64,000 nucleotides of DNA from Myxococcota bacterium (GTDB lineage: Bacteria; Myxococcota_A; UBA9160; PR03), in assembly GCA_041611735.1 (NCBI GenBank), contig JBFIML010000016.1:1-64000 (forward strand). The letters are read 5' to 3'. The first letter of the stretch is position 1. Each line of letters starts with the position of its first letter. Below, piece after piece: positions 42,936 through 64,000 of the stretch. The notes beneath the pieces are model-generated. The model had not been told where the DNA came from. It saw nothing but the letters and a program-made list of their open reading frames with translations, and searched no databases. The translations under genes were made by a program, and so were the position numbers.

Positions 42936-43039
42936 CGACCTCGGCACGCCCTCATCGCAGCGTGGTAGGTGCCTGGCGACGGGACTCGGACGCGGGGAGG
43001 TCATCTCGCACGTCGGCGATCCTGTAGTATCTCGGGACC

Positions 43040-44074: not shown

Positions 44075-44122
44075 AGAGACTGCTCCCATCCCCATCGTCC
44101 AGGCCGAGGCTCAGGAGTACGT

Positions 44123-44956: not shown

Positions 44957-44978
44957 GGAACCACAGAAGTCCTTCCGA

Positions 44979-45869
44979 ATGGGGGGAAACGCGGTGATCC
45001 AGGACTATCGGGTGTCCGAACGGCCGGCATGGCACTTGATCGCACAGGAGACCCTTGGCATCGCCGCGGTGGCCGCGCTGTTCCCTTTCGGAATCAAACG
45101 GTCGCATCGCCGCACGGCCCGCCGACGGGATCAGAGGACCGTCGTTCTCGTCCACGGCTACCTCGCGAATCGGTCGACGCTATTCCCGATAGCTGCGTAC
45201 CTTCGTTTCCGGGGCGTCGAGCAGGTGCTTACCTTCAACTACAGTTCCAGCGCCGGGGTCGAGCAAGCCGCGCTTACGCTGCGTGAGTACCTGCGGCGGC
45301 ACGTGCGCGGTGGCCGCATCGATCTCGTTTGCCATAGCCTGGGGGGGCTCGTGGCCCGGGTCTACATCCAGGAACTGGGTGGCGCGCGTCGCGTCGATCG
45401 GTGTGTGACCCTTGGTACGCCTCATCGCGGCACCTACAATTCCTATTGGCTCAATTCACGCGTTGGGAGCGAGCTTCGACCCGATTCTGCTCTCCTTTCC
45501 CGTCTCCATGGCTCCCGAGCGAGGGCTTCAAGCGTACGCTTTCTCTCGTTGGTCGCTGGCTCCGACAACCTGGTCGTTCCCCGTGTCTTTGCGAGTCACG
45601 AGCAGGAGATTCACGTCCCCGACCTCGGGCACGTCTCGATGCTCTTCTCGCCGCGGGTTCTCGGTATGGTCGCGGACCATCTCGTCACACCCGAGGCAAC
45701 GAGAGGCGTGCTCGAGCGGTCACCGGGGCGGGCTTGGGGGCTTGCCGATGCCTGGTCCCGTATGGGCGCCGTCGCTGGACGGACGTTCGCATCGCTCTGG
45801 CGGACGCGGCATCGAGGGTTCGATGCGCAGCGGACCGTCGGGGGGGAGGCGAGGGCTCGAGCGTTGTAG
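44979..45869 (+). CDS. Lipase/esterase-type alpha/beta hydrolase
   Basis: VLVHGY, CHSLGG, LGTPHRGT, D in SDNLVVP and H in LGH. Start approximate. Confidence 0.85.
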   Translation: MGGNAVIQDYRVSERPAWHLIAQETLGIAAVAALFPFGIKRSHRRTARRRDQRTVVLVHGYLANRSTLFPIAAYLRFRGVEQVLTFNYSSSAGVEQAALTLREYLRRHVRGGRIDLVCHSLGGLVARVYIQELGGARRVDRCVTLGTPHRGTYNSYWLNSRVGSELRPDSALLSRLHGSRARASSVRFLSLVAGSDNLVVPRVFASHEQEIHVPDLGHVSMLFSPRVLGMVADHLVTPEATRGVLERSPGRAWGLADAWSRMGAVAGRTFASLWRTRHRGFDAQRTVGGEARARAL

Positions 45870-45925
45870 AAGCGACCCGTCAGCCAGGGGCTTGACAGCA
45901 CGGCCTACATGGAAAGTGGCGTGAC

Positions 45926-46153
45926 GTGAGACGAGTTCTGCTGCTGTCGATCCTGGTCGGGGCCGCCCCGGCTCTCGCGGGTGCTCACGATGCGGCCCTG
46001 CGGATCGAGGCGGTACGGATCGGCAGCGTAGCATTCTTCGGGGTGCCGCGGAGAACATGCGGCGCGGAGACGGTGCTCGAGAAGGGTTCCTTCTACCAGG
46101 TTCGGGCTTCCGGTCTCGTCGTGGCGGGTAGCGCAAAGCGTCTGGTCCACTAG
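45926..46153 (+). CDS. Possible small secreted protein or gene remnant
   Basis: 75-aa ORF starting with a signal-peptide-like MRRVLLLSILVGAAPALA. No family recognised. Confidence 0.3.
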   Translation: MRRVLLLSILVGAAPALAGAHDAALRIEAVRIGSVAFFGVPRRTCGAETVLEKGSFYQVRASGLVVAGSAKRLVH

Positions 46154-46261: not shown

Positions 46262-46981
46262 TCAGGCTGCAGGGCGAGCCAGGGACTCGTGCACGAGGAT
46301 GCGGTGGCAGGACTCGCAGGTCACCAGCACCCGACCGGAGCGCAGGTCCACGCCGCTCTGGGGCGGGATCCGGATCTGGCAGCCGGGGCAGGAGCTGCCG
46401 GAGACCACCACGGTGGCCGGGCGCCGGTGGGAGGCCACCCGCTCGTACTGCTCCAGGATGACGCCGTCCAGCTGGCCGGCCCGCTCGGCCCGGGCCTCCC
46501 GCACGCGCCCCAACTGCTCGGCCAGCTCGGCATCGCGGGCGTCGAGGCCGCGCCGCTCCTCCTCGGCCCGCGCCTCTGCCTGCTTCGCCTGCGCCGCGAG
46601 GCGGGCCAGCTCCTGCTGTCCGGCCTCTACGCGCTCCATCAGCTCGAGGATCTCGGTCTCGTGGCGCGACTTGGCCTGGCGCGCCGCCGACATCTCGTGG
46701 AGCAGGGCCTGGTAGGCGGCCTTGCTGGTGACCTCGTACTGCTGGACGTCGAGCCGGGTGAGGACAGCCTCGGTGTCGGCCAGGGCGCGCTCGAGCTCCC
46801 GCTCCCGGTGCTGATCGGCGGCAATCGTCTGCTGTAGCGTGTCCATGGCCGCCACGCGCTCGGCGCGTTGCTGGGCGAGGGCCTCCCGCCGCCGGGGCAG
46901 CTCCGTCTGCTCGCCCTCGAGCCGAGCCAGCCGGGCATCCAGCTCCTCGAGACCGAGGAGGCGCTGCAGGATCTCCCTCAC
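46262..46981 (-). CDS. Coiled-coil protein with C4-type zinc ribbon (zf-RING_7; CT398/HP0958-like)
   Basis: LQRLLGLEELD long coiled coil, YERV and CPGC..IPPQ..CESCHRIL. Confidence 0.9.
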   Translation of the reverse strand: MREILQRLLGLEELDARLARLEGEQTELPRRREALAQQRAERVAAMDTLQQTIAADQHRERELERALADTEAVLTRLDVQQYEVTSKAAYQALLHEMSAARQAKSRHETEILELMERVEAGQQELARLAAQAKQAEARAEEERRGLDARDAELAEQLGRVREARAERAGQLDGVILEQYERVASHRRPATVVVSGSSCPGCQIRIPPQSGVDLRSGRVLVTCESCHRILVHESLARPAA

Positions 46982-47105
46982 GCCTTCTGTCTACGCCCGG
47001 CCCGGACGCAGGTCAAGCCGGGGGGCCGGGAGGCTCCCGGCCGGAACGACTATGCTCCTTACCCGCCGGTGGCACGGCCGTCGGGCAAGGGAGTCGAGGG
47101 GAAGC

Positions 47106-48542
47106 GTGACCTGGGAGCGCGCCCGCGCGGGCTACGACGAGATCTTCGGGGCCGACACGGCGCCCCGTCCCCACTACGCCGGCATCGTCTCGGTGCTCGA
47201 GTCCCTGAGCGAGCGCGAGCTGGCGCGCCGGGAGCGCCTCCAGGGCCTCTCGCTCCTCAACCAGGGCATCACCTTCGCCGTCTACGGAGACCGCGGCGGC
47301 ATCGAGCGCATCTTCCCCTTCGACTTCGTGCCACGCGTCCTGCCCGCCGAGGAGTGGCGCCGCATCGAGGTGGGTCTCGTGCAGCGTGTGACGGCCATCA
47401 ACCTCTTCCTGCGCGACGTCTACACGGACCAGCGCTGCCTCCGCGAGGGCGTGCTTCCCTGGGAGCTGGTGCTCTCCCGCAAGGAGTACAAACGTCCACT
47501 GCGGGGCATCGTGCCGCCCGGCCAGGTGTATACCCACGTGGTGGGAACCGACCTCGTGCGCGACGCCGAGGGCAACTACCTGGTGCTCGAAGACAACTGC
47601 CGCTGTCCCAGCGGCGTCTCCTATGTGCTCGAGAACCGGAGTGTCCTGAACCGCACCTTCCCGGAGCTCTTCAGCGTCTACCCGGTGCGTCCGGTGGGGG
47701 GCTACCCGCGCATGTTGCTCGACACGCTGCGCTTCGTGGCGCCGCGTTGGAGTGAGGGCGCCCAGGTGGTGGTGCTCACCCCAGGTATCCACAACTCGGC
47801 CTACTTCGAGCACTCCTTCCTGGCCCGGGAGATGGGGGTCCCGCTCGTGGAAGGCCGGGACCTGCTGGTGGAGGACGACCTCGTCTTCATGCGCACCACC
47901 GAGGGGCGACGCCGGGTGGATGTGATCTACCGGCGCGTGGACGACGACTTCCTCGACCCCCTCACGTTCCGCAAGGACAGCACCCTGGGCGCCCCCGGTC
48001 TGGTGGACGCCTACCGGGCCGGCAACGTGGCCCTCGCCAACGCGCCCGGCGCCGGCGTGGCGGACGACAAGGCCACCTACGCCTTCCTGCCCGATCTGAT
48101 CCGCTTCTACCTGGGCGAGGAGCCGGTCCTGGGCCAGGTGCCCACCTGGGTGGGCTTCCGTCGCGACGACTTCCAGTACATGACCGAGCACCTGGGCGAG
48201 CTCGTGGTGAAGACCACCGGCGACGCCGGCGGCTATGGCATGCTGATGGGCCCCTTCGCCTCCAAGCGCGAGATCGCCGAGTACCGCGAGCGCATGCGCG
48301 CGAACCCCGAGGGCTACGTGGCCCAGCCGCTGGTGGAGCTCTCGAGCCATGCCACCTACCTGGAGCGGCGCTTCGTGCCGCGTCGCATCGATCTCCGCCC
48401 CTTCATCCTGTACGGCGACCGGGTGCGCGTGCTGCCCGGCGGCCTCACCCGAGTGGCGCTGCGCGAGGGCTCCTACGTGGTCAACTCATCCCAGGGCGGC
48501 GGCAGCAAGGACACCTGGGTGCTGGAGGAGAAGGCGGGATGA
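47106..48542 (+). CDS. Circularly permuted type 2 ATP-grasp protein
   Basis: YDEIF, GITFAVY, FPFDFVPR, EDNCRCPSGVSY, NSAYFEH, YRRVDDDFLDP and VVNSSQGGGSKDTWVL. Confidence 0.93.
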   Translation: MTWERARAGYDEIFGADTAPRPHYAGIVSVLESLSERELARRERLQGLSLLNQGITFAVYGDRGGIERIFPFDFVPRVLPAEEWRRIEVGLVQRVTAINLFLRDVYTDQRCLREGVLPWELVLSRKEYKRPLRGIVPPGQVYTHVVGTDLVRDAEGNYLVLEDNCRCPSGVSYVLENRSVLNRTFPELFSVYPVRPVGGYPRMLLDTLRFVAPRWSEGAQVVVLTPGIHNSAYFEHSFLAREMGVPLVEGRDLLVEDDLVFMRTTEGRRRVDVIYRRVDDDFLDPLTFRKDSTLGAPGLVDAYRAGNVALANAPGAGVADDKATYAFLPDLIRFYLGEEPVLGQVPTWVGFRRDDFQYMTEHLGELVVKTTGDAGGYGMLMGPFASKREIAEYRERMRANPEGYVAQPLVELSSHATYLERRFVPRRIDLRPFILYGDRVRVLPGGLTRVALREGSYVVNSSQGGGSKDTWVLEEKAG

Positions 48543-49492
48543 TGCTGGCTCGCGTGGCCGACGCCCTCTATTGGCTCGGGCGTTACCTGGAGCGGGCCGA
48601 GAACGTGACCCGCCTGCTGCACGTGACGAGCGAGCTCACCGTCGAGCTCGAGGGCCTCGACGAGACCCTGGCCCAGACCGAGTGGGACACGCTGCTCGCG
48701 GCGATCCCGGGGGCCGAGCGCGCGCGACTGGACTTCTCGCCCGCCGCGGGCCTGAGCGTTCCCTACGTGGGGGCGCTGCTCCTCGACGACGCCAACCTCG
48801 TCTCGGTGCGCCACTCCCTCGGCATGGCCCGGGAGAACGCGCGGGCAATCCGCGAGGTGCTCACCCGCGAGGTCTTCCAGCAGCTGAACGAGGCCTGGCG
48901 GGAGCTCGAGCGGCACGGCCGGCGGCCGCCACGGGACCCGGCCGCGGCCCTCGACATCGTGAACCAGACGCAGCAGGCCATCCTGACCACCCTCGGCGCC
49001 ATCGAGCACACCCTGAGCCGCGACCAGGGCTGGACCTTCATGAAGCTCGGCGAGGCGCTCGAACGCACCCTGCGTACGGGGCTCGTGCTGCGCGCCAAGC
49101 TGCCCGCGCTGCGCGAGAAGGAGGCGGATCCTCCGCTCGTCTACGCGCGCTGGCGCAGCCTGCTGCGCGGGGTGGCCTCGCTCGAGAACTTCCGGCGCGT
49201 GCACGGCGCCGGGCTGGAGCCCGACCGGGTGCTGCACTTCCTGCTCTTCGACCCGGTGGCGCCGCGCTCCGTGCGCTGCGGGGTCACGCGCATGAAGGGC
49301 TATCTGGACCAGCTCCCAGAGGCGTCCGAGGTGAGCCGCGCCGACCGCATCCTGGGCCGGCTGCTCGCCGCCCTCCGCTACGAAGACCAGGAGATCCTCG
49401 CGGCGCCCGACCCGTTGCCCTTCCTGGATCGCCTGATCTCCGCCCTCGGCGAGACCCACGAGGCCGTGGCGCGGCAGTACTTCCTGAGCTGA
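48539..49492 (+). CDS. Alpha-E domain protein
   Basis: MLARVADALYWLGRYLERAE, ARENAR and second ER motif LGEALER..PRSV. Confidence 0.92.
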   Translation: MMLARVADALYWLGRYLERAENVTRLLHVTSELTVELEGLDETLAQTEWDTLLAAIPGAERARLDFSPAAGLSVPYVGALLLDDANLVSVRHSLGMARENARAIREVLTREVFQQLNEAWRELERHGRRPPRDPAAALDIVNQTQQAILTTLGAIEHTLSRDQGWTFMKLGEALERTLRTGLVLRAKLPALREKEADPPLVYARWRSLLRGVASLENFRRVHGAGLEPDRVLHFLLFDPVAPRSVRCGVTRMKGYLDQLPEASEVSRADRILGRLLAALRYEDQEILAAPDPLPFLDRLISALGETHEAVARQYFLS

Positions 49493-49496
49493 CGCC

Positions 49497-50477
49497 ATGT
49501 GGCTGCGTGTCGAGCACCGACTGCACTTCGCCTACGACGGCTGGATCTCCCAGAGCCACATGAATCTGCGCGTCGAGCCGCGCACGACGTCGCATCAGAC
49601 GCTGCGCTCCTTCCTGATCGCCGTGGGACCCCCGACCCGGGTGCACCGCCATCTCGACTGGATCGGCAACCACGTCCATCGCTTCAGCATCCACGACTTC
49701 CACGACCGCATCGAGGTTCTGGTGCGCTCCCTGGTGCGCACCCACCCCCAGGCGCTCACGCCTACGGCCCTGGCCCGAGCGCCCCGGCCCATGGAGCAGC
49801 TGGAGGAGCTGCTGGACTGGGTCCGCTTCGACGGTCCGGTGACCCGCTCGTCGCGACTGGAAGCCCTGGCCCGGGAGCTGCCCGTCGCCGCCGGCGAGCC
49901 ACTCGGGGCCCAGGTGGAGGGCATCGGCCGCTTCGTCCACCAGCGCTTTCGCTACGTGCCCGAGGTGACCGATTGGAAGAGCACCTCGGACCACCTGCTC
50001 GAGACCGGAGCGGGCGTCTGCCAGGACTTCACCCACGTGATGCTCGCGCTGCTGCGGCTGCGCGGGATCCCGTGTCGCTACGTGAGCGGGTACCTGCATA
50101 CGGACAGCGCGGGGTCCGCCCAGAGCCACGCGTGGGTGGAAGTGCACGCCGGCGAGCCCGGCTGGGTGGGCTACGACCCGACCCATGCCCGCCCGCCCGA
50201 CGAGCGCTACGTGGTCGTGGCCAGCGGGCGCCATTACGACGACGTTCCGCCGAACCGCGGCATCTACCGGGGCACCGCGCGCGAGATCCTGGGCGCCGAG
50301 GTCCGCACCGAGGAGGCGGGCCCGCCGGACGTGGCGGGCCTGCACGAGGAGACCGCTGCCATCGAGGTGCCGGTCTTCCGGGAGATCCCGGTGCCCAGCC
50401 GCGCATCGGACGCTGCCCTGCCCGAGGCGCAGCAGGAGCAGCAGCAGCAGCAGGCGCGAGGCGCGCCGGAGCCGTAG
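49497..50477 (+). CDS. Transglutaminase-like protein (Bact_transglu_N + core)
   Basis: GVCQDFTH, RYVSGY, HAWVE and GYDPT triad motifs, with a poly-Gln tail. Confidence 0.92.
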   Translation: MWLRVEHRLHFAYDGWISQSHMNLRVEPRTTSHQTLRSFLIAVGPPTRVHRHLDWIGNHVHRFSIHDFHDRIEVLVRSLVRTHPQALTPTALARAPRPMEQLEELLDWVRFDGPVTRSSRLEALARELPVAAGEPLGAQVEGIGRFVHQRFRYVPEVTDWKSTSDHLLETGAGVCQDFTHVMLALLRLRGIPCRYVSGYLHTDSAGSAQSHAWVEVHAGEPGWVGYDPTHARPPDERYVVVASGRHYDDVPPNRGIYRGTAREILGAEVRTEEAGPPDVAGLHEETAAIEVPVFREIPVPSRASDAALPEAQQEQQQQQARGAPEP

Positions 50478-51280: not shown

Positions 51281-52255
51281 ATGATCCGCCCGGCCGATCC
51301 GCCCGACGAACCCAGGCGCCTCGCGGCGCTGCGGGAACTCGAGATCCTCGACACGCCGCCGGAGGAGCGCTTCGACCGCTTCACGCGCCTGGCCCGTCGC
51401 ATGTTCGGCGTTCCCATCGCGCTGGTCAGCCTGGTGGATGCCCGACGCCAGTGGTTCAAGTCGCGGCAGGGCCTCACGGCCACCGAGACGCCGCGGGACA
51501 TCTCCTTCTGCGGCCACGCGATCCTCGGTGAGGACGTGCTGGTGGTCGCCGATGCGCGGCGCGACGAGCGCTTCGCCGACAACCCGCTGGTGAGCGGTGA
51601 CCCGAACATCCGCTTCTATGCCGGCTATCCCCTCGAAGCCCACGACGGCAGCAAGCTCGGAACCCTGTGCCTGATCGACCGGCAGCCGCGCGATTTCGCC
51701 GAGGAGGACCGCGTTCTGCTCCAGGACCTCGGCCAGATGGTGGAGGCGGAGCTGGCCGCCTTGCGCCTGGCCACCGTGGACGAGCTCACGGGGCTCTCCA
51801 ACCGGCGCGGGTTCCGGGCCGTGTCCCACAAGGCGCTAGCCCTCTGCAAGCGCATGAAGCGACCCGCCACGCTGCTCTTCTTCGATCTCGACGGGTTCAA
51901 GCCCATCAACGACCGCTTCGGCCACGCCGAGGGCGACCGGGCACTGCGCGAGGTGGCGGGCCTCCTGCTGGACAGCTTCCGCGACTCGGACGTGGTGGCC
52001 CGCCTCGGCGGCGACGAGTTCTGCGTCCTGCTGACCGGCACCGGCGAGAAGGATCTCGACCGCCCCCTGCACGGCCTCGAGGCGCACATTGCGGCTCGCA
52101 ACGCGGCATCCGATCGCAAGTATCCTCTGGCGTACAGCGTGGGCGTGGTCCGCTACGACCCCGTCCGCCACGCCTCGGTGGACGACCTGCTCGAAGAGGC
52201 CGACCGCCTGATGTACGAGCAGAAGCGCGAACGCCGCGCCGCCGGGGCGCGCTGA
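51281..52255 (+). CDS. GAF-GGDEF diguanylate cyclase
   Basis: RQWFKS..SFCGHAI..IRFYAG GAF, DELTGLSNRR, DLDGFKPIND and RDSDVVARLGGDEF. Confidence 0.93.
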   Translation: MIRPADPPDEPRRLAALRELEILDTPPEERFDRFTRLARRMFGVPIALVSLVDARRQWFKSRQGLTATETPRDISFCGHAILGEDVLVVADARRDERFADNPLVSGDPNIRFYAGYPLEAHDGSKLGTLCLIDRQPRDFAEEDRVLLQDLGQMVEAELAALRLATVDELTGLSNRRGFRAVSHKALALCKRMKRPATLLFFDLDGFKPINDRFGHAEGDRALREVAGLLLDSFRDSDVVARLGGDEFCVLLTGTGEKDLDRPLHGLEAHIAARNAASDRKYPLAYSVGVVRYDPVRHASVDDLLEEADRLMYEQKRERRAAGAR

Positions 52256-53244: not shown

Positions 53245-53640
53245 TCAGCCGGTTCGGGCCTTCTGGCGGATCTTCTCCAGGACGATGTGGGAGAGGGCCT
53301 CGTCGCCGAAGATTCCGACCCGGATGCGCAGGTGCGTGAGCCGGTCGCTGCGCCGCTGCAGGGTGACGAGGATGCGCCGCTCGTCGGCGCCGCGCGCCGT
53401 CACGGATGCGGAGGTCCCGTCCTTCTCGGTGGCGGTCACGGTCAGGTCCAGGTCCGCCAGGGCCGCGCGGGAGGCGGACCAGGCCTGGTCGAGGGTCAGC
53501 TCCTCGGTGGACTCGAGGTCGCCGCGCACGTAGGCGACCGTCCCCGCTCCCGCTGCCGCGCCCCCGGCCAGGAGCACGGCGGCGCAGCCCGTGGGAGCGA
53601 GCAGCGCCAGGCAGACCAGCAGCCGAAGGCCGGTTCCCAT
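53245..53640 (-). CDS. DUF3568 family lipoprotein
   Basis: Lipobox PTGC, GAAAGAGTVAYVRGDL and IRVGIFGDEALS..LEKI. Confidence 0.85.
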   Translation of the reverse strand: MGTGLRLLVCLALLAPTGCAAVLLAGGAAAGAGTVAYVRGDLESTEELTLDQAWSASRAALADLDLTVTATEKDGTSASVTARGADERRILVTLQRRSDRLTHLRIRVGIFGDEALSHIVLEKIRQKARTG

Positions 53641-53690
53641 GAGGCTGGTGAGCGTAGCCCAGCGCCCGGTCGGTCGCGTGGCCTTGCGGC

Positions 53691-54326
53691 CTAGATCCAG
53701 CCGAGCAGCGGGCCGAACACGATCAGGCACGTCGCATCGAAGCCGTAGATCGTGCCCACCGCGGCCGCCTTGCGCCGCACGGACTGCATGTCGTGCACCC
53801 AGAAGGCCACCAGGAAGAAGGTCAGGTAGCCCAGGATCACGATTGGGATCGGCGAACCCGCACTCCACCACCAGTAATCCCAGGTGAGGGCGTCCACCGC
53901 GTTCAGGAACAGCTCCACCACCACGCAGCCGATCGACCAGGTGACGGCCAGGAACCAGCGGTTCGGGACGCCGCAGATGCGCAGGCCGGGGTCCCGGGGC
54001 AGCATCTTGGCCGCTGCCACGCCCAGGAAGGCGAACATCAGGCTGATCTCGATGTTCAAACCGATCAGGATCAGGAAAGCCGTATCGCCCGGGGCCGCCC
54101 AGACCGGCGCGTACTGGGTGAAGTGGAAGACCAGGGCGTTCCAGATCTCGTTGAACCAGTCCATGCCCCAGAAGGCGAGCCCCGCGAAGAGCACGTTCCA
54201 ATTGCGCCGCTCCACCTCGACGGAATACACATAGACCACCAGCACGAGGGTCGGGATCACCGTCCAGTTGAACAGGCTGCCGTCGCGCAGGTTGCCGAGC
54301 GCCTGTTGGGCGAACTCCGTGGGCAC
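53691..54326 (-). CDS. Conserved hypothetical multi-pass membrane protein
   Basis: About six TM helices with polar intramembrane motifs DWFNEIWN, NIEI and VELFLN..W.YWWW. AAGGAG RBS before GTG 54326. Confidence 0.8.
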   Translation of the reverse strand: MPTEFAQQALGNLRDGSLFNWTVIPTLVLVVYVYSVEVERRNWNVLFAGLAFWGMDWFNEIWNALVFHFTQYAPVWAAPGDTAFLILIGLNIEISLMFAFLGVAAAKMLPRDPGLRICGVPNRWFLAVTWSIGCVVVELFLNAVDALTWDYWWWSAGSPIPIVILGYLTFFLVAFWVHDMQSVRRKAAAVGTIYGFDATCLIVFGPLLGWI

Positions 54327-54476
54327 GATCAGGGCTCCTTGCGGTCGCGGGCAGCATACCCGAAGCCGCCCGCGCGCGGCGGACCGCCCTTCGGCCCTGG
54401 AAGCACCCGGGTCCGGATCATCGGCGTTGGCCTTGGATCCCCGACCCATCCAAGCCCCGCACGGGCCGGCGCAAGC

Positions 54477-55457
54477 TCACGCCGCTCCGCGACCCGGGCT
54501 TGCCTGTTCGAGCCAGCGGCGTACGCCCTCGCGGAGCTCTACCCGGGGCTCGAAGCCGAGCTCCGTGCGAGCGCGATCCACCCGGTAGTCGTACGGGCGT
54601 CCTACGACGCGCACCGCGTAGCGCGTCAGGCGCGGCTCGCGCCCCCGTAGCCGGCCCCAGCCTTCCAGGGCCGTGGCGGCCAGGAGGGCGAGCGGGTAGG
54701 GCACGTGCCCTCGCGGCGGTGGCACGCCCAGGCCCCCGGCCAGGAACACGACGAACTCGTTCCAGCTGGGATTCCCCGGATGGTTCAGATTGTAGGTGCG
54801 CCCCCCGGCGCGCGGATCGGCGAGCACGCGCGCCACGCACTCCACCACGTCCTCCACGTGGATGGCATCCACCCGCTGGCGTCCGCTTCCGATCATCCGG
54901 GCCCGTCCCGCGCGCAGATTCTCCACCAGCTTGGGCAGGAACTTGTCGTCGCCAGGGCCATAGATCGGTGTCGGCCGCAGCACCGTGAGGGCGAGCTCGC
55001 CGCGCGCCTCGTGGGCGCGCAGGAGCTCCTCGGCCTCGATCTTCGTGTCGCCGTAGGGATCGCCCGTCTTGCGCAGGGGCGCCGTCTCGTCGAGCGGGAC
55101 GCCCGAGGCACGCCCGTACACGGAGACCGAGCTCAGGTGGACGAAGCGACGTACCCCGGCGGCCACCGCGGCGCGCGCCAGGTTGCGGGTCCCGTCGCGA
55201 TTGATGCGCCGGGCGTGATCCATGCGCTGCCCGTAGCCCACGGCGGCGGCCAGGTGGACGACGGCCGCGTGGTCCGGCAGCAGCGAGGCGAAGCTCTCGG
55301 GCGCCGTGAGGTCGCCTCGCACCACGCGCTGGGCGGAAAGGCCCCGCTCGGACTCCGGGGGCAGGAGCAGCGCCGTGGTCTCGTGGCCGTCGCGGGCGAG
55401 GCGGGGGAGCAGGTTCCGGCCCAGGAAGCCCCCGGCCCCGGTGACGAAGATCTGCAC
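54477..55457 (-). CDS. NAD-dependent epimerase/dehydratase (extended SDR, 3-beta-HSD-like)
   Basis: VTGAGGFLG, HLAA, SSVSVYG, YGDTK and RPTPIYGPGD. Confidence 0.9.
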   Translation of the reverse strand: MQIFVTGAGGFLGRNLLPRLARDGHETTALLLPPESERGLSAQRVVRGDLTAPESFASLLPDHAAVVHLAAAVGYGQRMDHARRINRDGTRNLARAAVAAGVRRFVHLSSVSVYGRASGVPLDETAPLRKTGDPYGDTKIEAEELLRAHEARGELALTVLRPTPIYGPGDDKFLPKLVENLRAGRARMIGSGRQRVDAIHVEDVVECVARVLADPRAGGRTYNLNHPGNPSWNEFVVFLAGGLGVPPPRGHVPYPLALLAATALEGWGRLRGREPRLTRYAVRVVGRPYDYRVDRARTELGFEPRVELREGVRRWLEQASPGRGAA

Positions 55458-55460
55458 GCC

Positions 55461-56366
55461 CTAGATCCGTGCCGCCACGCCGTACCGGGCGAACCGGTCC
55501 TGGAGCTCCGCGTAGAAGCCGTCCTCCGGCGGGCGGATGCCGAGCGGCGTGCGCCCCGTCCCGAGGCGGGGCAGCTTCGCCTCCCAGAGATGGTTGTAGG
55601 GCAGCAGCGTGAGCGTGCGCACGCCGAGGTCCCGGAGCAGGTGCGCCGTGGCCGCCACGTTCTCCGGGTCGCTGTTCCAGCCGGGGATCACCGCCATGCG
55701 CACTTCGAGGGAAACGCCGCGCCGCAGCAGCTCCGCCAGGTTCTCCAGGATCTGGAGGTTGTCCTGCCCCGTGAAGCGGGTGTGGCGTAGCGGGTCCGCC
55801 GCCTTCACGTCGAAGAGCACGAGGTCGAGCCACGGCAGCAGCGGCTCCAGCAGGCCGAAGGGGTAGGCCCCGCAGGTCTCCAGGGCCACGTGCAACGCCT
55901 CGGCCTTCGCCCGGGGCAGGAACTCGCGCAGGAAGCCCGCGTGCAGCACGGGCTCCCCGCCCGAGAGGGTGAGGCCCCCGCCCGAGGCCTCGTAGAAGGC
56001 GCGATCGCGCAGCAGCAGCTCGAGAAGCTCGGGCGCCCCCCAGCTGCGTCCCACCTGGCGCAGGGCACGTCCGGGGCACACGTCCACGCACTTCCCGCAC
56101 GCGGTGCAGCGGGCGAAGTCCACGCGTGCCGTCCGCTCGGAGCGGATCGCCCCCTCCGGACACACCCCGAGGCAGCGCACGCAGCCCTCCAGGCAGTGCT
56201 CCGCGTAGTAGGCGAGCTCCGGCGACGCCTGCTTCGCCTCGGGGTTCTGGCACCAGGCGCAGGCCAGGGAGCAGCCCTTGAAGAAGACCACGCTGCGGAT
56301 GCCCGGCCCGTCGTGGATCGAGAAGCGCTGCACGTCGAAGACGATGGCCTGGTGGGGCAGGGTCAC
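55461..56366 (-). CDS. Glycyl-radical enzyme activating enzyme (radical SAM with ferredoxin insert)
   Basis: QRFSIHDGPGIRSVVFFKGCSLACAWCQNPE, two auxiliary Cys motifs (CVRCLGVCP, CTACGKCVDVCP) and SGGEP. Confidence 0.93.
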   Translation of the reverse strand: MTLPHQAIVFDVQRFSIHDGPGIRSVVFFKGCSLACAWCQNPEAKQASPELAYYAEHCLEGCVRCLGVCPEGAIRSERTARVDFARCTACGKCVDVCPGRALRQVGRSWGAPELLELLLRDRAFYEASGGGLTLSGGEPVLHAGFLREFLPRAKAEALHVALETCGAYPFGLLEPLLPWLDLVLFDVKAADPLRHTRFTGQDNLQILENLAELLRRGVSLEVRMAVIPGWNSDPENVAATAHLLRDLGVRTLTLLPYNHLWEAKLPRLGTGRTPLGIRPPEDGFYAELQDRFARYGVAARI

Positions 56367-58984
56367 GACGCCGCTCCGGGATCCTGGCAGGCGGGCCGCC
56401 CGCCGCCCCCCGCCGGGCCGTGGAGCGTCCGGGCGATGATCTCGTCCTTCATCTCCTCGGTGAGGTCGTTGAAGTAGGCGCTGTAGCCCGAGATCCGCAC
56501 CACCAGGTCGCGGTGGCGCTCCGGGTGCGCCCTGGCGTCGAGGAGTACGGCTGCGTCCACCACGTTGAACTGGACCTGCATGCCGCCGGCGGCGAAGTAG
56601 CCGCGCGTGAGATCGGCGAGGAGCCGGGTCCCGCTCTCGCCGCGCAGGTACCAGGGGTCGAGCTTCTCGTTGAGACACAGCCCGTTGCCGACTCCGGGCG
56701 AGGCGGCGCGAGCCGCCGCCATCATGGAGGCCGTCGGGCCCTCACTGTCGCAGCCGTTCCCGGGCGAGAGACCGTCCGAGAGCGGTGCTCCGGCGCGCCG
56801 CCCGCTCGGCAGCGCCCCGAGTCGTCGCCCGAAGCCCACGTGGGTGGTCATGGTCCAGAAGCCCGGCACGTAGGGTCCGCCGCGCGGGTTGCGGTGGCGG
56901 CGCACCGCGGCGCAGAAGCGCTCCACCACGTGTCGCGCCCAGTGCTCGGGGAGCCCCTGGTCCTGGCCGAACTTGGGGGTCCGCTCGGTCACCCGGGTCC
57001 GCAGCTCCTCGGCCCCTGCGAAGTCCCGGTCGACGGCGTCCAGGAGCGTCCGCAGCGAGACGCGCCCTTCCTGGAAGACCAGGCGCTCGATGGCGGCCAG
57101 CGAGTCGGCCACGTCGGCCACGCCCACGCCCTGGAGCCCCGTGGTGTCGTAGCGGGCGCCGCCCGCGGTCACGTCCCGGGCGTTCGCGACGCAGTCCTCC
57201 ACCAGCAGGGAGAGCAGCGGCGTGGGACGCCAGCGGGCGTGCGCCGTCTCGATGGCGTCGTTGCCCGCCACGGCGGTCGCCACCAGGGTCTCGAGCTCGT
57301 CCTCGAAGGCGGCGACGAGCTCCCCCATGGAGCCGAACTCGCGCGGCGTGCCCCCCTCGTCCGCGTGGGCGCCCCCGTGGAGGGCCCGGTCGAGGGCGGC
57401 GGGCAGGCTCAAGAAGCCGGCACCGGCCGCCGGGAAGTGCCGCCCCGGAATGCCCCACTCCACGCAGCCCACGATGCTGTAGTCGCGGGCGTCGGGGGGC
57501 GCCGCGCCGAGCTCCACCAGGGCCGGCACCACCGCAGCGTCGTTGAAGAAGGCGGGCATCCCGCCGCCCGCCTTCACGATCTCGCAGGCCCGGGCCAGCA
57601 GGGCCGGGTCGCTGCCGGGATGCACGCGCAGGTGCAGGTTCGGCTGGCGCAGCCGCATCTGGTCGTAGGCCTCGAGCAGCAGGAAGGAGACCTCGTGGGT
57701 GGCGTCGCGCCCCTCCGCGTCCGTGCCGCCGAGCGTGATCCCCGACGCCGACGAGAGGCCGCTGAAGTACTCGGTGGCCATGGAGTTGAAGAGGGGCAGG
57801 AGCTCCGCGGCCTTGCCCAGGAAGCAGCCCAGCAGCTCCACGGCGCGCTCGGGGCTGATGCGGCCCGCGGCCCGGTCGCGCTCGTAGTAGGGCCCGAGGA
57901 GCTGGTCCAGGCGTCCGAAGGAGATCCCGTGCTGGAAGCTCTCCTGGTGCAGCATCGCGTAGGTCAGGAAGACGCTCTGGACGGCCTCGTGAAAGCTGCG
58001 GGCCGGGCGGGCCGGCACTTGGGCCAGGATCTCCGCCAGCTCGCGCAGCTCGCGGGCTCGCTCCGGGCACGTCTCGGCGCGGGCCGCCTCGGCACAGTGA
58101 CGGCTCCAGCGCGCGCCCAGGCCGATGGCCGCGCGCGCCGCGATCGACGCCGCCTCGAGGAAGGCGGCCGCGTCGCGGTCCGTTGCGCGGGCGCGCGCGG
58201 CCTCCACGTCGGCCAGGATTCCCTCGAAGCCGCGGGCCAGCACCTTGCCGTGGTCCGGCGTCACGTGGGAGATGCCGGCGAACTGGGTCAGCACCAGGTG
58301 GCGGCCCCCCATCAGCAGGTTCGGCAGCTCCGGGTCCGAGGCCAGCATGCCCGCCTGGGCCTGGACCGAGCGCGTGAACCAGTAGGGGAGGATCTCCTGC
58401 TCCAGCCGGCGCAGCGGCTCCGCCTGGGCGGCCAGGGGATTCACCGCCCGCGTCGCCAGGCGCCGCAGCTCCGGGAGCATCAGGAGCCCGCCGAAGTCCG
58501 GGTGGATGGGAGCGCCGATCCGCTGGGAGGAGGGATTCCCCACCACCAGTTCGTCCTCGTAGATGCGCAGCGGCACCCGCTCGAGGGTCCACGCCAGGGC
58601 GCGGGCCCAGGTGACGACCGGGGGCTCCCGACGCAGTGCGTCCTCACGCCGCGCATGGAAGCGCTGGAGGGTCCGGCCCAGGCGGAGCTGCCAGCGCTTC
58701 TGGGGGATCCCCGTGCCGAGGTTACGCTCCAGCGCGCGACGGAACAACGCGAAGTGCCCCCGCGCGACCCGAGCGCCCACGGGGTCGGCGGGAGCATGCT
58801 CCCGGAAGTACTGCGTCACGAGCTCCGCCTTCTGGGTGCAGAGCCCGTAGGGCGCAGACAGCAGCGCCTGGCGCAGCCGCCCGAGACGCGCGCTCGGCGA
58901 GGGCCGGCGGCGCGTCGCGGCGACCTCCTCCGGCCGGGCTCGCGCCGGCAGGCCGCCGGAGAGGAGGGTGGGAGCGCTGCTCAT
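56363..58984 (-). CDS. Glycyl radical enzyme (PFL2/PflD-like superfamily), substrate unknown
   Basis: IYEDELVVG, SFGRLDQ, LRQPNL, Cys loop IVGCVE, SDGLSP, QVQFNV and Gly loop VVRISGYSAYF. Confidence 0.92.
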   Translation of the reverse strand: MSSAPTLLSGGLPARARPEEVAATRRRPSPSARLGRLRQALLSAPYGLCTQKAELVTQYFREHAPADPVGARVARGHFALFRRALERNLGTGIPQKRWQLRLGRTLQRFHARREDALRREPPVVTWARALAWTLERVPLRIYEDELVVGNPSSQRIGAPIHPDFGGLLMLPELRRLATRAVNPLAAQAEPLRRLEQEILPYWFTRSVQAQAGMLASDPELPNLLMGGRHLVLTQFAGISHVTPDHGKVLARGFEGILADVEAARARATDRDAAAFLEAASIAARAAIGLGARWSRHCAEAARAETCPERARELRELAEILAQVPARPARSFHEAVQSVFLTYAMLHQESFQHGISFGRLDQLLGPYYERDRAAGRISPERAVELLGCFLGKAAELLPLFNSMATEYFSGLSSASGITLGGTDAEGRDATHEVSFLLLEAYDQMRLRQPNLHLRVHPGSDPALLARACEIVKAGGGMPAFFNDAAVVPALVELGAAPPDARDYSIVGCVEWGIPGRHFPAAGAGFLSLPAALDRALHGGAHADEGGTPREFGSMGELVAAFEDELETLVATAVAGNDAIETAHARWRPTPLLSLLVEDCVANARDVTAGGARYDTTGLQGVGVADVADSLAAIERLVFQEGRVSLRTLLDAVDRDFAGAEELRTRVTERTPKFGQDQGLPEHWARHVVERFCAAVRRHRNPRGGPYVPGFWTMTTHVGFGRRLGALPSGRRAGAPLSDGLSPGNGCDSEGPTASMMAAARAASPGVGNGLCLNEKLDPWYLRGESGTRLLADLTRGYFAAGGMQVQFNVVDAAVLLDARAHPERHRDLVVRISGYSAYFNDLTEEMKDEIIARTLHGPAGGGGRPACQDPGAAS

Positions 58985-59353
58985 GGGGCCGTTCCCGGTG
59001 TGCCCCACGATACCGTAGTCGGGCGAGGACACGGCGTCGGCCTCCAGATCCACGCTGTCCGGGGTCTCGAAGAGCTGGTCGGGCGGGCTTGCCCTGCTCG
59101 CGCGCCTTTCCCCGGCCCCTTCCGCTGGCGCGCGTGGGACGTTGACCCAGCGCTCGCCCCCGCGCCCGGCCCAAGGTCCTCGACGCAGACCGCCTCAGCG
59201 ATGGAGACCCCGGGGGAGATGTCGCGAGCCTGCAACAAACCGGGCTCGATCGCAGCCATCGTTGAATATTTCACCCCGCCGCTCCGACATAGACTCGACC
59301 CCTCCGCCAACCCGGGATCCCGGCTGCGGCACGCCCGCCGGGACGGAGGCATC

Positions 59354-60427
59354 GTGAAGGCTCCCCTGCCCGAGAACGAGGCGGCGCGCCTCGACGCCCT
59401 GCGCAGCTATCGGATCCTCGACACGTTGCCGGAGGCCTCCTACGACGACATTACCCACCTGGCCTCGGTGCTCTGCGAGGCGCCCATCGCCCTGGTAAGC
59501 CTGGTGGACAGCGATCGCCAGTGGTTCAAGTCGAGGCACGGCCTGGAGGCCACCGAGACGCCGCGCCACGTGGCCTTCTGCGCCCACGCGATCCTCCAGT
59601 CCGAGCTCATGGTCGTCCCCGACACCCGGGCCGACGAGCGCTTCGCGGACAACCCGCTCGTCACCAGCGCTCCCAACATCCGCTTCTACGCCGGGGCCCA
59701 GCTCGTCACCGGCAAGGGCGAAGCCCTGGGGACACTCTGTGTCATCGACCAGGTCCAGCGCACGCTGAGCGATGCCCAGGCGGATGCGCTGCGGGCGCTC
59801 TCCCGGCAGGTCATGGCGCAGCTCGAGCTCCGGCGGCACATTGCGGAGCAGCAGCGCTACCGGCGCATGCTCGAGGCCTACCACCGGGAGCTCGAGGACA
59901 GCAATGCGCGGCTCGAAGCCCAGAGCCTGACCGACGACGTCACCGGCTTCCACAACACGCGCTTCCTGCACCACTACCTGGACGACCAGCTGGCGCTCGC
60001 CACGGCCCGGGGCGAAGCGCTCTCCCTGGTCTTCTTCGACATGGACGGCTTCAAGGCGGTGGTGGATGCCCACGGGCACCTGCTGGGCGCCCGGGTCCTC
60101 CGGGAGGTCGCCGCGGCCGTCCACCGCATGCTCGACCGCGACGACCGCATCGTGCGCTACGGCGGCGACGAGTACGTGGTGATCCTGCCCGGGCAGGCCC
60201 GCGACCAGGCCCTGGCCAAGGCGGAACGGATCCGGGACGTCATCGGCTCGACGGCCTTCCTGCTGAGCGAGGAGCTCGACGTCCGGGTGACGGCGTCCCT
60301 GGGCGTCGCCACCTTCCCGGACGACGCCCGGGACAAGCGGCAGCTCCTGATGGAGGCGGACCACTGCCTCTTTCAGAGCAAGCGGGACGGCAAGAACCGG
60401 GTGTCGCGGAAGACGGGTGGGGGATGA
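59354..60427 (+). CDS. GAF-coiled coil-GGDEF protein (GGDEY variant)
   Basis: GTG 59354 with a GGAGG RBS, GAF RQWFKS..FCAHAI, DDVTGFHN and RYGGDEY. Confidence 0.9.
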   Translation: MKAPLPENEAARLDALRSYRILDTLPEASYDDITHLASVLCEAPIALVSLVDSDRQWFKSRHGLEATETPRHVAFCAHAILQSELMVVPDTRADERFADNPLVTSAPNIRFYAGAQLVTGKGEALGTLCVIDQVQRTLSDAQADALRALSRQVMAQLELRRHIAEQQRYRRMLEAYHRELEDSNARLEAQSLTDDVTGFHNTRFLHHYLDDQLALATARGEALSLVFFDMDGFKAVVDAHGHLLGARVLREVAAAVHRMLDRDDRIVRYGGDEYVVILPGQARDQALAKAERIRDVIGSTAFLLSEELDVRVTASLGVATFPDDARDKRQLLMEADHCLFQSKRDGKNRVSRKTGGG

Positions 60428-60751: not shown

Positions 60752-61816
60752 TCACGCTCTGGCGCCGAAGCTCGGACTCACGGCACGGTTGCCCGCTCCC
60801 GCACCATGCTCAACCTTGGGAATCACCGAACTCGCCTGCAGGTCCTCGCCGCGCTTCCTGGCCGACTCCACCTGCGACTTGATCCAAGAATAGGTCTCTC
60901 GAAGACCATCCTCGAGAGGAACCTGTGGGGCCCACCCGAGCACCTTCCTGATCAATCGGTTGTCGCTGCTGCGTCCGCGCACGCCCAGAGGCCCCGGAAC
61001 GGGCTTGATCGCAAGGTTCCTCTTCTCGAACGACATGGCCAGCTCGGCCAAACCGTTGATCGAAACCATCTCGTCCTGCCCGAGATTCAACGGATGCGGA
61101 TACTCGCTGCGCATGATCCGCAGCGTCCCTTCCACGCAGTCATCGACGAACATGAAGCTGCGTTGCTGCCGCCCGTCTCCCCAGATCTCGATGGTGCCAT
61201 TCTGCTCGGCGACAATTACCTTGCGGCAAATGGCGGCCGGAGCCTTCTCCCGTCCTCCTCGCCACGTGCCCAGAGGACCGTACACGTTGTGGTAACGTGC
61301 AATCCTCGTCTCCAGGCCATAGTCCTCGCGGTAATACCCATTCAGCAGCTCCGCAAGCAGCTTCTCCCATCCGTATCCGGCCTCTGGCAGGGCGGGATAG
61401 GCCATGTCTTCGGTCAACCCCGGCCCATCCAGCCCAGCTTGCAGTTGCGTATTGTAGACACAGGCGCTGCTCGAGAAGAAGAATCGCCTCGCGCCATACC
61501 GCCGCGCAGCATCCAACATGTTTATCGAGATCAGAGCACTATCGCGCATGATGAGCGCACGATAGTTCTCGATGAACCCCATGCCTCCCATGTTCGCGGC
61601 CAGACTGTAGACCTCATCGAATCGACCCGAGCCCCGGAAGATCGCGTGCACCTGCTCGCGACGTCGGAGATCCACGTTGAAGAACACATCCGCCGGGCTG
61701 GGCTCGAACTCCGGATGCTTCCAATCAGCCGCGACCACCCAGTTCCCATCTGCCTTTAGGCGCTTGACCAGGTGGTGCCCAATGAAACCTCCGGCACCCG
61801 TTACGAGAATACGCAT
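60752..61816 (-). CDS. NAD-dependent epimerase, GDP-mannose 3,5-epimerase-like
   Basis: LAANMGGMGFI, SSSACVY, YGWEKL, GGREKAPAAICRK, WGDG.Q.RSF and GVRGRSSDN. Confidence 0.9.
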   Translation of the reverse strand: MRILVTGAGGFIGHHLVKRLKADGNWVVAADWKHPEFEPSPADVFFNVDLRRREQVHAIFRGSGRFDEVYSLAANMGGMGFIENYRALIMRDSALISINMLDAARRYGARRFFFSSSACVYNTQLQAGLDGPGLTEDMAYPALPEAGYGWEKLLAELLNGYYREDYGLETRIARYHNVYGPLGTWRGGREKAPAAICRKVIVAEQNGTIEIWGDGRQQRSFMFVDDCVEGTLRIMRSEYPHPLNLGQDEMVSINGLAELAMSFEKRNLAIKPVPGPLGVRGRSSDNRLIRKVLGWAPQVPLEDGLRETYSWIKSQVESARKRGEDLQASSVIPKVEHGAGAGNRAVSPSFGARA

Positions 61817-61843
61817 CAGTTACCCCCCCTCGGCAGCGTGGCT

Positions 61844-62908
61844 TCAGACCCGAAGTGCCTTCTTGATCTTCGCTTCACTATCCAAGGCAAACCTGAAATC
61901 GTCAGCAATGTGATGTCGCGTGCCCCTTTCGAACTTCTCCTGATCGAATGCCCAGACGGCCAATCTGGCGATCAAACGTCTGCGGAGACGCGCCAGGCCC
62001 GATCGAGGCGCACCGTGGATCGTAAGGCTTGCGTATCGAGAACCGAAGAGTGTGTAGAACTTCGACAGATAGAACTTGGAGAGAGTCGGCAGGAAAGCGG
62101 CCCATGGTGCATAGCGCGCCACGATGTAGATCACTGGATTCAAGAACAGGTCCGACTTCTTGTCGAAGAAGACACTCTTGAGCTTGTCTAGCTCGGTCGC
62201 CTGCAGGGACGTGGATCCCATGCTCTCCGAGAGATTGTCAACGTCGTTGTACAACACGACGTTGGTGGCCACGTGCGGCTGGATTCCCTGCTGACGAGCT
62301 CGGAATGAAAATTCCGTATCTGCATGGACCTGCGGACAGTACGTCTCCTGGTAGAAGCCGATGCGCTCGAAAACGCTCTTCCGGATCAGGACTCCGTCGC
62401 CGCACGTTGCCTGGGCTGGATAGATCTCGCCCTTGCAAATCTCCGGAGGCAGTTCATCCTCCCACCAACCATTGAACTTCAGCTGAAACAGGTACGGAGA
62501 AGACCAGACGCTGAACGAACCGAGAGCCCAGATCCTTCCCGGCTGATCCGCAAAATCGATGCGATTGGCCAGGTAGTCGAGCTTGTTCCTTTCGAATACC
62601 GAGACAAAACGCTCCAAGTAATCCTCTAGAATGATCGCGTCATCGTTGATCATCAGCAGCGGATCGCATCCGTCCGCAATCGCCCGTTTCACGCCGAGGT
62701 TCGTGGCGGACGCCCACCAGTGGCTGGGAGTGGCCGGGACGAGGCAGACGTCGATCCGATGTTCGTTGATCAGGTCACGGGTTCCATCCGTCGATCCAGA
62801 ATCCACCATGTAGACCCGAAAGTCACGGTACGTCTGATGTACCAGGCTCTCGAGAAAGCGCCTTGTCTTGCGCTGCCGATTGAAGGTCGGAACGACGATG
62901 CCGATCAT
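61844..62908 (-). CDS. Glycosyltransferase family 2
   Basis: IVVPTFNR, VDSGSTDGT, WWASATNLG, INDD and HADTEFS. Confidence 0.88.
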   Translation of the reverse strand: MIGIVVPTFNRQRKTRRFLESLVHQTYRDFRVYMVDSGSTDGTRDLINEHRIDVCLVPATPSHWWASATNLGVKRAIADGCDPLLMINDDAIILEDYLERFVSVFERNKLDYLANRIDFADQPGRIWALGSFSVWSSPYLFQLKFNGWWEDELPPEICKGEIYPAQATCGDGVLIRKSVFERIGFYQETYCPQVHADTEFSFRARQQGIQPHVATNVVLYNDVDNLSESMGSTSLQATELDKLKSVFFDKKSDLFLNPVIYIVARYAPWAAFLPTLSKFYLSKFYTLFGSRYASLTIHGAPRSGLARLRRRLIARLAVWAFDQEKFERGTRHHIADDFRFALDSEAKIKKALRV

Positions 62909-62923
62909 GGCTGTCCTAACTGA

Positions 62924-64000
62924 TTACAAGACGATGGAACTGTAGCTGGTGACATCCTTGGTTGCGCACTCGATGCTACCGATCATGCCGTCTACGCGGC
63001 ACGTCTCCGTTCGAATCACCCGCCCCGCGAACACGGCCAGCGGCACGTGGCGCACGCGCTGAAAACTGGAAACGGCCTGCGCAAGTTCTCGTTTGGGCCG
63101 CTTGATCTCCGGGCGTCCGCCATCCTGCCCTTGCAGGATGCAAGAGAAGCAATCGTCGTAGAGATCCAGGTAGACCACAGCGTTCTTTAGCGCTCCGTGA
63201 TCGATGGAGAGGAAGCCTTCGACACTCGTGTAGAGGAAGTAGTCGGTCTTCAAGACGTTCTCGAGCGCGAAGCGAAGCGCCAACGCGCGGCTTCGCGGCT
63301 GCTCGCGAGCATAGAGGCAGACGGGCGGAGAAGGACCCGTCAGCTCCGAATGCTCCTCCAGGAGGGCATTGAACGCTTCTGCGGCGTCGTAGGGGCATAA
63401 GAAGGTGAAGGCAGAGCCTTCCGCCTGGGCGGCCTCGCCGGTCCGGGGCAAGATGCGATCGGTCAGGGTCGCGTGTTGGCGGCTACCTGGACCTGGCGAA
63501 TCTCCCACGTCTACGATGAACGTGAGACGTTCCCTGGCCACCTGCGCACTCGCATCCCTGTCCGTGACCAAGGACCAGCTGGTCGAGGACCTCTTGCGGT
63601 TGATGGTATCCTCGAAGAATTCTATGAGAGCGTTTACGGTGTTCTCGACCGAGTAGCGCAAAGCCACCTGTCTGGCTGGTTCGGTGTCCACGGCGTTCTT
63701 CTGGATGTCCCGGTCGAATGCGTCGATATCCTGGGCCATCTTGAGGCTATCGAACGGATCTCGAAAGAAACGAATGGTGGCCGACGTCACCTCCGGGATG
63801 CAGGTTAGCTTCGATGCGATCACGGGCTTCTCGAACTGCATTGCGTCGACGATCGGAATGCCAAATCCCTCGTACAAGGAGGGAAAGACCAGACCCTTGG
63901 TGTTGATCATGAGGGCCGCGAGCTCTGCATCGGAGACGTAGCCCAGAATCTGGACGTGCTTGCTCTGGTCCGACTCCTCGAGCTTGGCTCGCCAGGCCGA
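62924..64000 (-). CDS. Glycosyltransferase family 4, 5'-truncated, with extra C-terminal domain
   Basis: The frame is open to the window end (..ILGYVSDAELAALM..). FPSLYEGFGIPIVDAM motif. Confidence 0.85.
   Translation of the reverse strand, partial: SAWRAKLEESDQSKHVQILGYVSDAELAALMINTKGLVFPSLYEGFGIPIVDAMQFEKPVIASKLTCIPEVTSATIRFFRDPFDSLKMAQDIDAFDRDIQKNAVDTEPARQVALRYSVENTVNALIEFFEDTINRKRSSTSWSLVTDRDASAQVARERLTFIVDVGDSPGPGSRQHATLTDRILPRTGEAAQAEGSAFTFLCPYDAAEAFNALLEEHSELTGPSPPVCLYAREQPRSRALALRFALENVLKTDYFLYTSVEGFLSIDHGALKNAVVYLDLYDDCFSCILQGQDGGRPEIKRPKRELAQAVSSFQRVRHVPLAVFAGRVIRTETCRVDGMIGSIECATKDVTSYSSIVL

Follow-up and report, generated by a model that had tools for sequence, protein, structure and literature searches.

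A locus on the minus strand of a Myxococcota bacterium contig (JBFIML010000016.1 of assembly GCA_041611735.1, positions 1 to 64,000; this whole stretch of 64,000 nt is referred to as the window) encodes a glycyl-radical enzyme (GRE), its activase and an extended short-chain dehydrogenase/reductase (SDR), followed by a gene for a membrane protein. With a probability that we put at roughly 60%, the first three genes form a small conserved anaerobic catabolic module, in which the GRE would act as a 1,2-eliminase, most likely a dehydratase, alongside its activase and the SDR. Judged by its sequence, the GRE is a conserved, oxygen-sensitive and functionally uncharacterised enzyme that forms a clade of its own outside the characterised GRE classes; we labelled this clade EWG after its Cys loop. 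The membrane gene is best regarded as an independent orphan with wide conservation, which lies downstream here by happenstance and is not part of the conserved module. Among anaerobic radical enzymes, the GRE eliminases form the class that grows fastest, and according to a 2026 GRE review, whole clades, including PFL2, are still without assigned function.

The genes are co-directional and were delineated by translation and profile searches as follows:

56363..58984, minus strand: GRE of the EWG clade, 873 aa, with Pfam PFL-like and Gly_radical domains, placed by clade tree
55461..56366, minus strand: GRE-activating radical S-adenosylmethionine enzyme, 301 aa, GTG start, with Pfam Radical_SAM, Fer4_12 and Fer4
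54477..55457, minus strand: extended SDR (NAD-dependent epimerase/dehydratase fold), 326 aa, GTG start, Pfam Epimerase at E 3e-46
54327..54476, minus strand: 150-nt spacer from the SDR to the membrane gene, as read from the sequence
53691..54326, minus strand: membrane protein with six predicted helices, very likely of the AF_1327 family (PF27271), 211 aa, GTG start, AAGGAG 8 nt upstream

The GTG start of the activase gene and the stop of the GRE gene overlap by 4 nt, and 3 nt separate the activase from the extended SDR. A contig from the metagenome of another study (run X5, 2215 nt, zero differences) covers positions 53406-55620, comprising the membrane gene, the spacer, the SDR gene and the 3' end of the activase gene; as this identical contig from an independent study has the same order, an assembly artefact is excluded and the adjacency is real. 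Positions 53902-56492 are spanned by a contig of run X1, possibly the sample from which the sequence came. The four-gene arrangement, its spacing and the sequence motifs given in a preliminary description of the locus, made from the sequence alone, were borne out by the translations and the independent contig. For the spacer and its surroundings, no promoter-like or terminator-like site was predicted; the spacer itself had no Rfam match, and its fold was not more stable than that of shuffled sequences (z -0.84). The window has a G+C content of about 72% and many shadow open reading frames (ORFs), and a plus-strand ORF of 1335 aa at 56420-60427, antisense across the whole GRE gene, was rejected as a high-G+C shadow frame, with only its last ~340 codons (a GAF-GGDEF gene) being real.

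Membership of the GRE superfamily was established by Pfam matches to the PFL-like domain (PF02901, E 8e-160) and to Gly_radical (PF01228, E 3e-23), together with the motifs IVGCVEW at residues 503-510 and RISGY at 830-834 (RISGYS at 830-835). The activase matched TIGR02494 with 293.9 bits, above the NCBIfam cut-off of 174.35, which identifies it as a dedicated GRE activase, and Pfam detected two additional ferredoxin-like 4Fe-4S motifs beyond its Radical_SAM domain. The single-Cys, eliminase-type loop and the ferredoxin-bearing activase that had been noted before were thus found again, as GCVE at residues 506-509 and as Fer4 domains.

Assignment to a characterised class was attempted with the NCBIfam models. 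On TIGR01774, the PFL2/glycerol dehydratase subfamily, the GRE scored 639.9 bits, below the cut-off of 678.2, and the clade member L017 scored 553.6 bits. Against the curated equivalogs, it remained below every cut-off, with 213-452 bits as compared to 994-1150: HypD, 445.8 (cut-off 1100); CutC, 403.3 (1050); HpsG, 430.3 (1000); HpfG, 406 (1000); PFL/PRK09983, 451.9 (1109); indoleacetate decarboxylase, 302.9 (1100); and 4-hydroxyphenylacetate decarboxylase, 212.9 (1150). With these scores and the tree described below, the earlier proposal that the GRE stands outside the known classes was upheld.

For the delineation of the clade, one genome per species and metagenomes were searched, which, after dropping two near-identical duplicates, yielded 39 distinct EWG loci at 44-84% identity. 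In a FastTree phylogeny of 49 GREs, the clade (21 rows) was monophyletic with an SH-like support of 100; its sister group, likewise with a support of 100, consisted of two bacterial PFL2-like GREs (L018, L052), and the GRE of the window was not nested among them. The clade is recognised by the signatures VGC(V/A/T)EWG, SFPAAG, TQ.(A/S)GI(S/A)H and R(I/V)SGYSAYF.DLT. Its carriers are metagenome-assembled genomes (MAGs) with labels that include Myxococcota, Desulfobacteraceae, Binatota and Bradymonadales; many of them, according to record and run labels, are from marine, sediment or groundwater metagenomes. The distribution is rare and patchy: an EWG GRE was present in 8 of 401 sampled genomes of the window's phylum, counting the window's own, and in one of seven other genomes of its family. 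In the window's genome the EWG enzyme is the single GRE, and NrdD was not found there. A literature search, which did not extend to the supplementary tables of published GRE networks, returned no paper on the EWG clade or on a module of GRE, SDR and TetR regulator.

The catalytic residues of the GRE were located as Cys507 and Glu509 in VGCVEWG, His240 in AGISHVT, and the radical-bearing Gly833 in RISGYS, all four being invariant in 23 aligned sequences of the clade and its sister group. Cys507, Glu509 and His240 align with Cys433, Glu435 and His164 of glycerol dehydratase, which, according to the 2026 review, serve that enzyme as thiyl residue, base and acid; the review also defines a Cys-x-Glu motif on the Cys loop for the 1,2-eliminases. 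With GCVE at 506-509 and His240 at the position of His164, the GRE is accordingly predicted to be a 1,2-eliminase, and is classified here as a putative new variant among the GRE eliminases.

From this residue complement we infer the following course of reaction. The activase would install the radical on Gly833, from where it would be transferred to Cys507, and the resulting thiyl radical would take a hydrogen from the hydroxyl-bearing carbon of the substrate. Glu509 would accept the hydroxyl proton, while His240 would protonate the leaving group on the neighbouring carbon, yielding a carbonyl compound. The extended SDR would then interconvert carbonyl and alcohol, possibly joined in relatives of the locus by a second SDR of the classical, PRK06181 type; alternatively, the SDRs could supply the GRE with the right hydroxy isomer. 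As many of the carriers are MAGs from marine, sediment or groundwater samples, the substrate is probably an environmentally relevant hydroxy compound that is degraded without oxygen.

B12-independent glycerol dehydratase (1R8W/1R9D) and propanediol dehydratase (5I2A) have the same fold as the GRE (463 and 441 bits, respectively) and the same proposed type of chemistry, a radical 1,2-elimination. The GRE could therefore be taken for a divergent glycerol, propanediol or sulfopropanediol dehydratase, with the SDR as its ordinary aldehyde reductase, which would be in line with the common overall fold and catalytic residues as well as with known pathways that pair a GRE dehydratase with a reductase, HpfG-HpfD being a reported example (PMC11489063). 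The substrate side of the active site, together with the equivalog scores far below their cut-offs, makes this quite improbable. Residues Asp447 and His281/Ser282 of glycerol dehydratase, which we take to be substrate-pocket positions, are not all kept: Asp447 aligns with Gly521 and Ser282 with Gly353, and FQHG stands for the stretch NGHS. Moreover, 36 positions carry residues that are fixed in the EWG clade but seldom or never occur in 27 other GREs, including large-to-small changes at A413, G415, A519 and A520, and aromatic or basic residues at F350, F399, W510, W710, H161, H346, H451 and R586, such that the pocket is probably remodelled and larger than in glycerol or propanediol dehydratase. 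Also unlike for these dehydratases, no genes for microcompartments or for aldehyde or alcohol dehydrogenases lie near the GRE of the window; across the 39 EWG loci, no microcompartment, aldehyde dehydrogenase or pyrroline-5-carboxylate reductase genes were seen near the GRE.

Two more distant GREs of NC10/Methylomirabilales (L020, L021; 39% identity) adjoin genes for a tripartite ATP-independent periplasmic (TRAP) transporter and a 3-hydroxyisobutyrate-dehydrogenase-like protein. This layout resembles dihydroxypropanesulfonate-type pathways, and both GREs lie below all equivalog cut-offs; in the tree, they are placed in a different branch from the EWG clade, which also speaks against counting the latter among the known dehydratases.

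The closest solved structure, ahead of the two dehydratases, is PFL2 of Archaeoglobus fulgidus (2F3O; 513 bits over GRE residues 114-852), which has the Cys-x-Glu motif and the His in common with the GRE. It differs in reading GCVE(P/I)...SF(T/L)S(S/T)D where the EWG clade has GCVEWG...SFPAAG, and in lacking the ~85 additional conserved N-terminal residues and the SDR partners of the clade. The function of PFL2 is described in the 2026 review as debated between glycerol dehydratase and alkylsuccinate synthase. Carried over to the EWG clade, the latter assignment would make the GRE an X-succinate synthase of the alkylsuccinate synthase type, adding hydrocarbons to fumarate, as recently proposed for PFL2; an XylR-type regulator, as flanks the GRE at L008, would fit such a role. 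We consider this extremely improbable, given the invariant eliminase Cys-x-Glu and His, the low scores against the solved X-succinate synthases (MasD, 200 bits; TutD, 195 bits; as opposed to 463 bits for glycerol dehydratase), which place the GRE outside this class, and conserved partners that are SDRs rather than enzymes processing succinate adducts. Genes for small subunits were likewise absent from the Pfam neighbour survey, in which such short proteins could escape ORF or Pfam detection.

The extended SDR was assigned as such by the motif GAGGFLG at residues 7-13, the presence of YGDTK and the Epimerase domain over residues 3-224. Its gene could be assessed as a neighbour in 29 of the 39 loci, a contig end intervening in the other 10, and adjoins the GRE in 22 of these 29, which supports its proposed role as a conserved neighbour; among GREs at or below 43% identity, an extended SDR was found in none of 30 cases. 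Conversely, when the search was started from the SDR, six of nine orthologue loci (at least 50% identity) held a GRE. The best NCBIfam match of the extended SDR was OleD (NF042422), over the full length; with 153-165 bits as compared to a cut-off of 580, it is not an OleD. OleD, a 2-alkyl-3-oxoalkanoate reductase, reduces a free beta-keto acid; no oleABC genes were seen here. An Atlas look-up with the extended SDR returned generic epimerase clusters only.

In relatives of the locus, two further companions of the GRE were observed that the preliminary description had not mentioned. Of the 39 EWG loci, 14 have a classical SDR next to the GRE, and 10 a TetR regulator immediately upstream; at L008, its place is taken by an XylR-type activator. 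Three classical SDRs were scanned (L017, L134, L136), and all exceeded the NCBIfam cut-off for PRK06181; the closest solved relatives of the classical SDR are clavaldehyde dehydrogenase and ElxO, followed by others that include 11-beta-HSD1. The EWG clade offers unusually clear handles for assigning a function: the signature of its active site, the one or two SDRs dedicated to it, and a sensor of the TetR or XylR type. Separately, contig C25 of the window's own genome (G000; 42017-46034; L157:7018-11035) carries a PRK06181-like classical SDR and an extended-SDR domain with an adjacent MFS_2 transporter and no GRE. The classical SDR of C25, 54% identical to that of L136, was considered as a clear missing partner and dismissed, its context being different.

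The most informative gene context was found in two Desulfobacterota MAGs (L134:1917-9583 and L135:1917-6916), where a six-gene operon runs on one strand in the order beta-keto acid cleavage enzyme (BKACE), APC amino-acid permease, classical SDR, extended SDR, EWG GRE and activase, with the first four genes spaced by 3-13 nt. The extended SDR of L134 and that of the window are 57% identical in a gapless alignment. The nearest match of the BKACE is Kce (255 bits, cut-off 382), and the combination of a Kce-like BKACE with an amino-acid permease suggests a polar acid as substrate. BKACE and APC permease genes recur in five of the nine SDR orthologue loci; three of them (L133, L137, L138) hold the set of SDR, BKACE and permease without a GRE, with TauE, TetR or 3-hydroxyacyl-CoA dehydrogenase genes near some. 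A reading of the GRE as a C-S or C-N lyase, prompted by TauE near some loci, was discarded, since the leaving-group position is a His, from which the corresponding residue of CutC and IslA presumably differs; in the window's genome, TauE was not found by tblastn.

A pairing of SDR and BKACE is documented for deoxyribonate catabolism (PMC6365646), where an SDR makes a 3-keto acid that BKACE cleaves with acetyl-CoA. That pathway, as described there, employs a classical SDR and major facilitator superfamily transporters and has no GRE, whereas the loci found here combine an extended SDR with a Kce-nearest BKACE and an APC permease. On the basis of this precedent, the SDR-BKACE-permease loci and the weak OleD match, we tentatively suggest, as the leading but rather uncertain idea on the substrate, a 3-oxo acid as a possible shared hub intermediate. 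The operon of L134 and L135 constitutes the best available entry point to the GRE substrate.

Several observations weigh against the module and its proposed chemistry. The extended SDR is not adjacent to the GRE in 7 of the 29 assessable loci (L005, L010, L011, L013, L031, L204, L211), and at least four EWG GREs (L011, L015, L031, L204) lack an adjacent activase despite several kb of flanking sequence. BKACE and permease adjoin the GRE in only 2 of the 39 EWG loci; in three genomes with BKACE-SDR loci no EWG GRE was found (best matches at 41, 35 and 41% identity), and tblastn detected neither BKACE nor APC permease in the window's genome. The OleD match is weak, with HpnA and 3-beta-HSD scoring nearly as well. 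Finally, most EWG loci come without a transporter and with regulators of the TetR/XylR type, which a hydrophobic, membrane-permeant substrate would fit equally.

Such a substrate had been put forward as a possibility in the preliminary description, with the SDR reducing the carbonyl product of the GRE and the membrane protein serving as an enzyme or as a presenter of the substrate. In the form weighed here, the lipophilic compound might also be embedded in the membrane, and the protein might also be a transporter. In addition to the missing transporters and the type of regulator, this explanation could draw on the nearest curated families of the extended SDR, which are lipid-active (OleD, HpnA, 3-beta-HSD), on 11-beta-HSD1 among the next solved relatives of the classical SDR, and on the clade-specific aromatic (F350, F399, W510, W710) and shrunken (A413, G415, A519, A520) residues of the GRE. 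We nevertheless consider it unlikely. The lipophilic substrate found no direct support, and the idea is weakened by the Kce-like BKACE and the APC amino-acid permease in the operon of L134 and L135; the remaining evidence on both sides concerns the membrane protein.

The membrane protein had no match in the copies of Pfam and NCBIfam used, of which the Pfam copy lacks PF27271. Homologues at 62-89% identity carry PF27271; the annotation is precomputed for all 120 inspected among the matches listed (64-89% identity), and the nearest Atlas clusters are 100% PF27271, for which the Atlas gives the name AF_1327 family; the protein thus very likely belongs to this family. AF_1327 comprises 5381 matches, or 496 representatives after clustering at 50%, and most of its members have a length of precisely 211 aa and share 62-74% identity between distant phyla (Myxococcota, Chloroflexota, Acidobacteriota, Bacteroidota). 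No paper on AF_1327 was found in the literature search.

An AlphaFold2 model of the protein (predicted local distance difference test 96.5, predicted TM-score 0.91) consists of six long helices, with conserved Glu and Asn residues inside them (E37, E60, N63, E93, E138, N142). The roughly six transmembrane segments proposed earlier agree with the model, whereas a membership of the protein in the GRE system found no support in its neighbourhood. A Foldseek search of the PDB for structural relatives remained without a match at E <= 0.001, a profile search against PDB sequences reached a best E of 0.07, and no internal repeat between the two halves was detected (hhalign E 0.12). In VIA-align, the best resemblances were to lipid-handling helix bundles, namely MmpL, the Insig homologue 4xu4, NPC1, PTCH1 and HpnN, which would suit a lipophilic substrate; the Z-scores of 7.4 to 5.0 are, however, lower than what the tool itself gives as the level reached by chance among helical bundles. 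The Insig/sterol-sensing type (MvINS, 4XU4) shares six helices and a similar size with AF_1327 (Z 7.1, root-mean-square deviation 3.1 over 131 residues), but has no sequence relation to it, likewise lies below the chance level stated for helical proteins, and serves as a lead only.

Genomic context sets AF_1327 apart from the module. The gene adjoins an EWG GRE in one of the 39 loci, that of the window, and was adjacent in none of the first 50 GRE loci, contrary to the expectation of a conserved neighbour. In five other EWG genomes that hold both genes, GRE and AF_1327 are on different contigs, the window being the only case in these samples with both on the same contig. No conserved neighbour of AF_1327 was found across 80 independently sampled loci, as befits a stand-alone family; histidine kinases (10/80), classical SDRs (8/80) and the cupins seen in related Holophagae were rejected as partners, being at the chance level for such common families. 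A search with the divergent member P0165 gave two loci, neither with a GRE.

Some findings nonetheless connect the family to GREs and speak for the partnership that the lipophilic-substrate explanation assumes. Apart from the window, 2 of the 80 loci have AF_1327 next to a GRE and its activase in the same orientation, with a rough chance expectation of 0.1-0.5 such loci:

L052:4581-12115: aminotransferase, AF_1327, glyoxalase-like gene, crotonase-like ORF, PFL2-like GRE and activase
L072:1376-6633: GRE, activase, PNPOx-like gene and AF_1327

The GRE of L072 is on a very long branch, and its placement is uncertain. In the window's phylum, a PFL-like GRE was present in 24 of 34 genomes with AF_1327 as compared to 57 of 367 others, and in a second phylum, Chloroflexota, in 3 of 5 as compared to 25 of 385 (search-centre genome left out). 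Leaving out the window's own, AF_1327 occurs in five of seven EWG genomes, as compared to 18 of 73 genomes whose GREs are of other kinds. For NrdD, a marker of anaerobes, an overlap with AF_1327 was seen in only 1 of 13 genomes. These co-occurrence counts include related, hence non-independent genomes, and the pattern might stem from a common habitat. The enrichment in two phyla provides a lead towards a looser functional link between AF_1327 and GREs, a statistical tie that merits a proper test. That AF_1327 is a true functional partner of EWG and PFL2-like GREs, handling or carrying a membrane-soluble substrate or product, is unlikely; if true, no glycyl-radical system before this one would have been linked to a protein integral to the membrane, and the partnership would offer a way into the function of PFL2, a matter of debate for twenty years. 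Behind the AF_1327 gene, after 50 nt and in the same direction, follows a gene for a DUF3568 lipoprotein-like protein (53245-53640, minus strand), and a relative from sediment run X6 (~92% identical) keeps the DUF3568 and AF_1327 genes together.

In the surroundings of the locus, two paralogous GAF-GGDEF diguanylate cyclase genes (51281-52255 and 59399-60427, both on the plus strand; 43% identical) bracket the region, the latter being divergent from the GRE operon. Further away, at 46839-50477 (plus strand), genes for a circularly permuted ATP-grasp, an Alpha-E and a transglutaminase-like protein form a triad that is found widely. Towards the end of the window, at ~61000-64000, the G+C content falls from ~72% to 56-60% across a series of genes of the sugar-nucleotide epimerase and glycosyltransferase type, and this segment may be an acquired surface-polysaccharide island.

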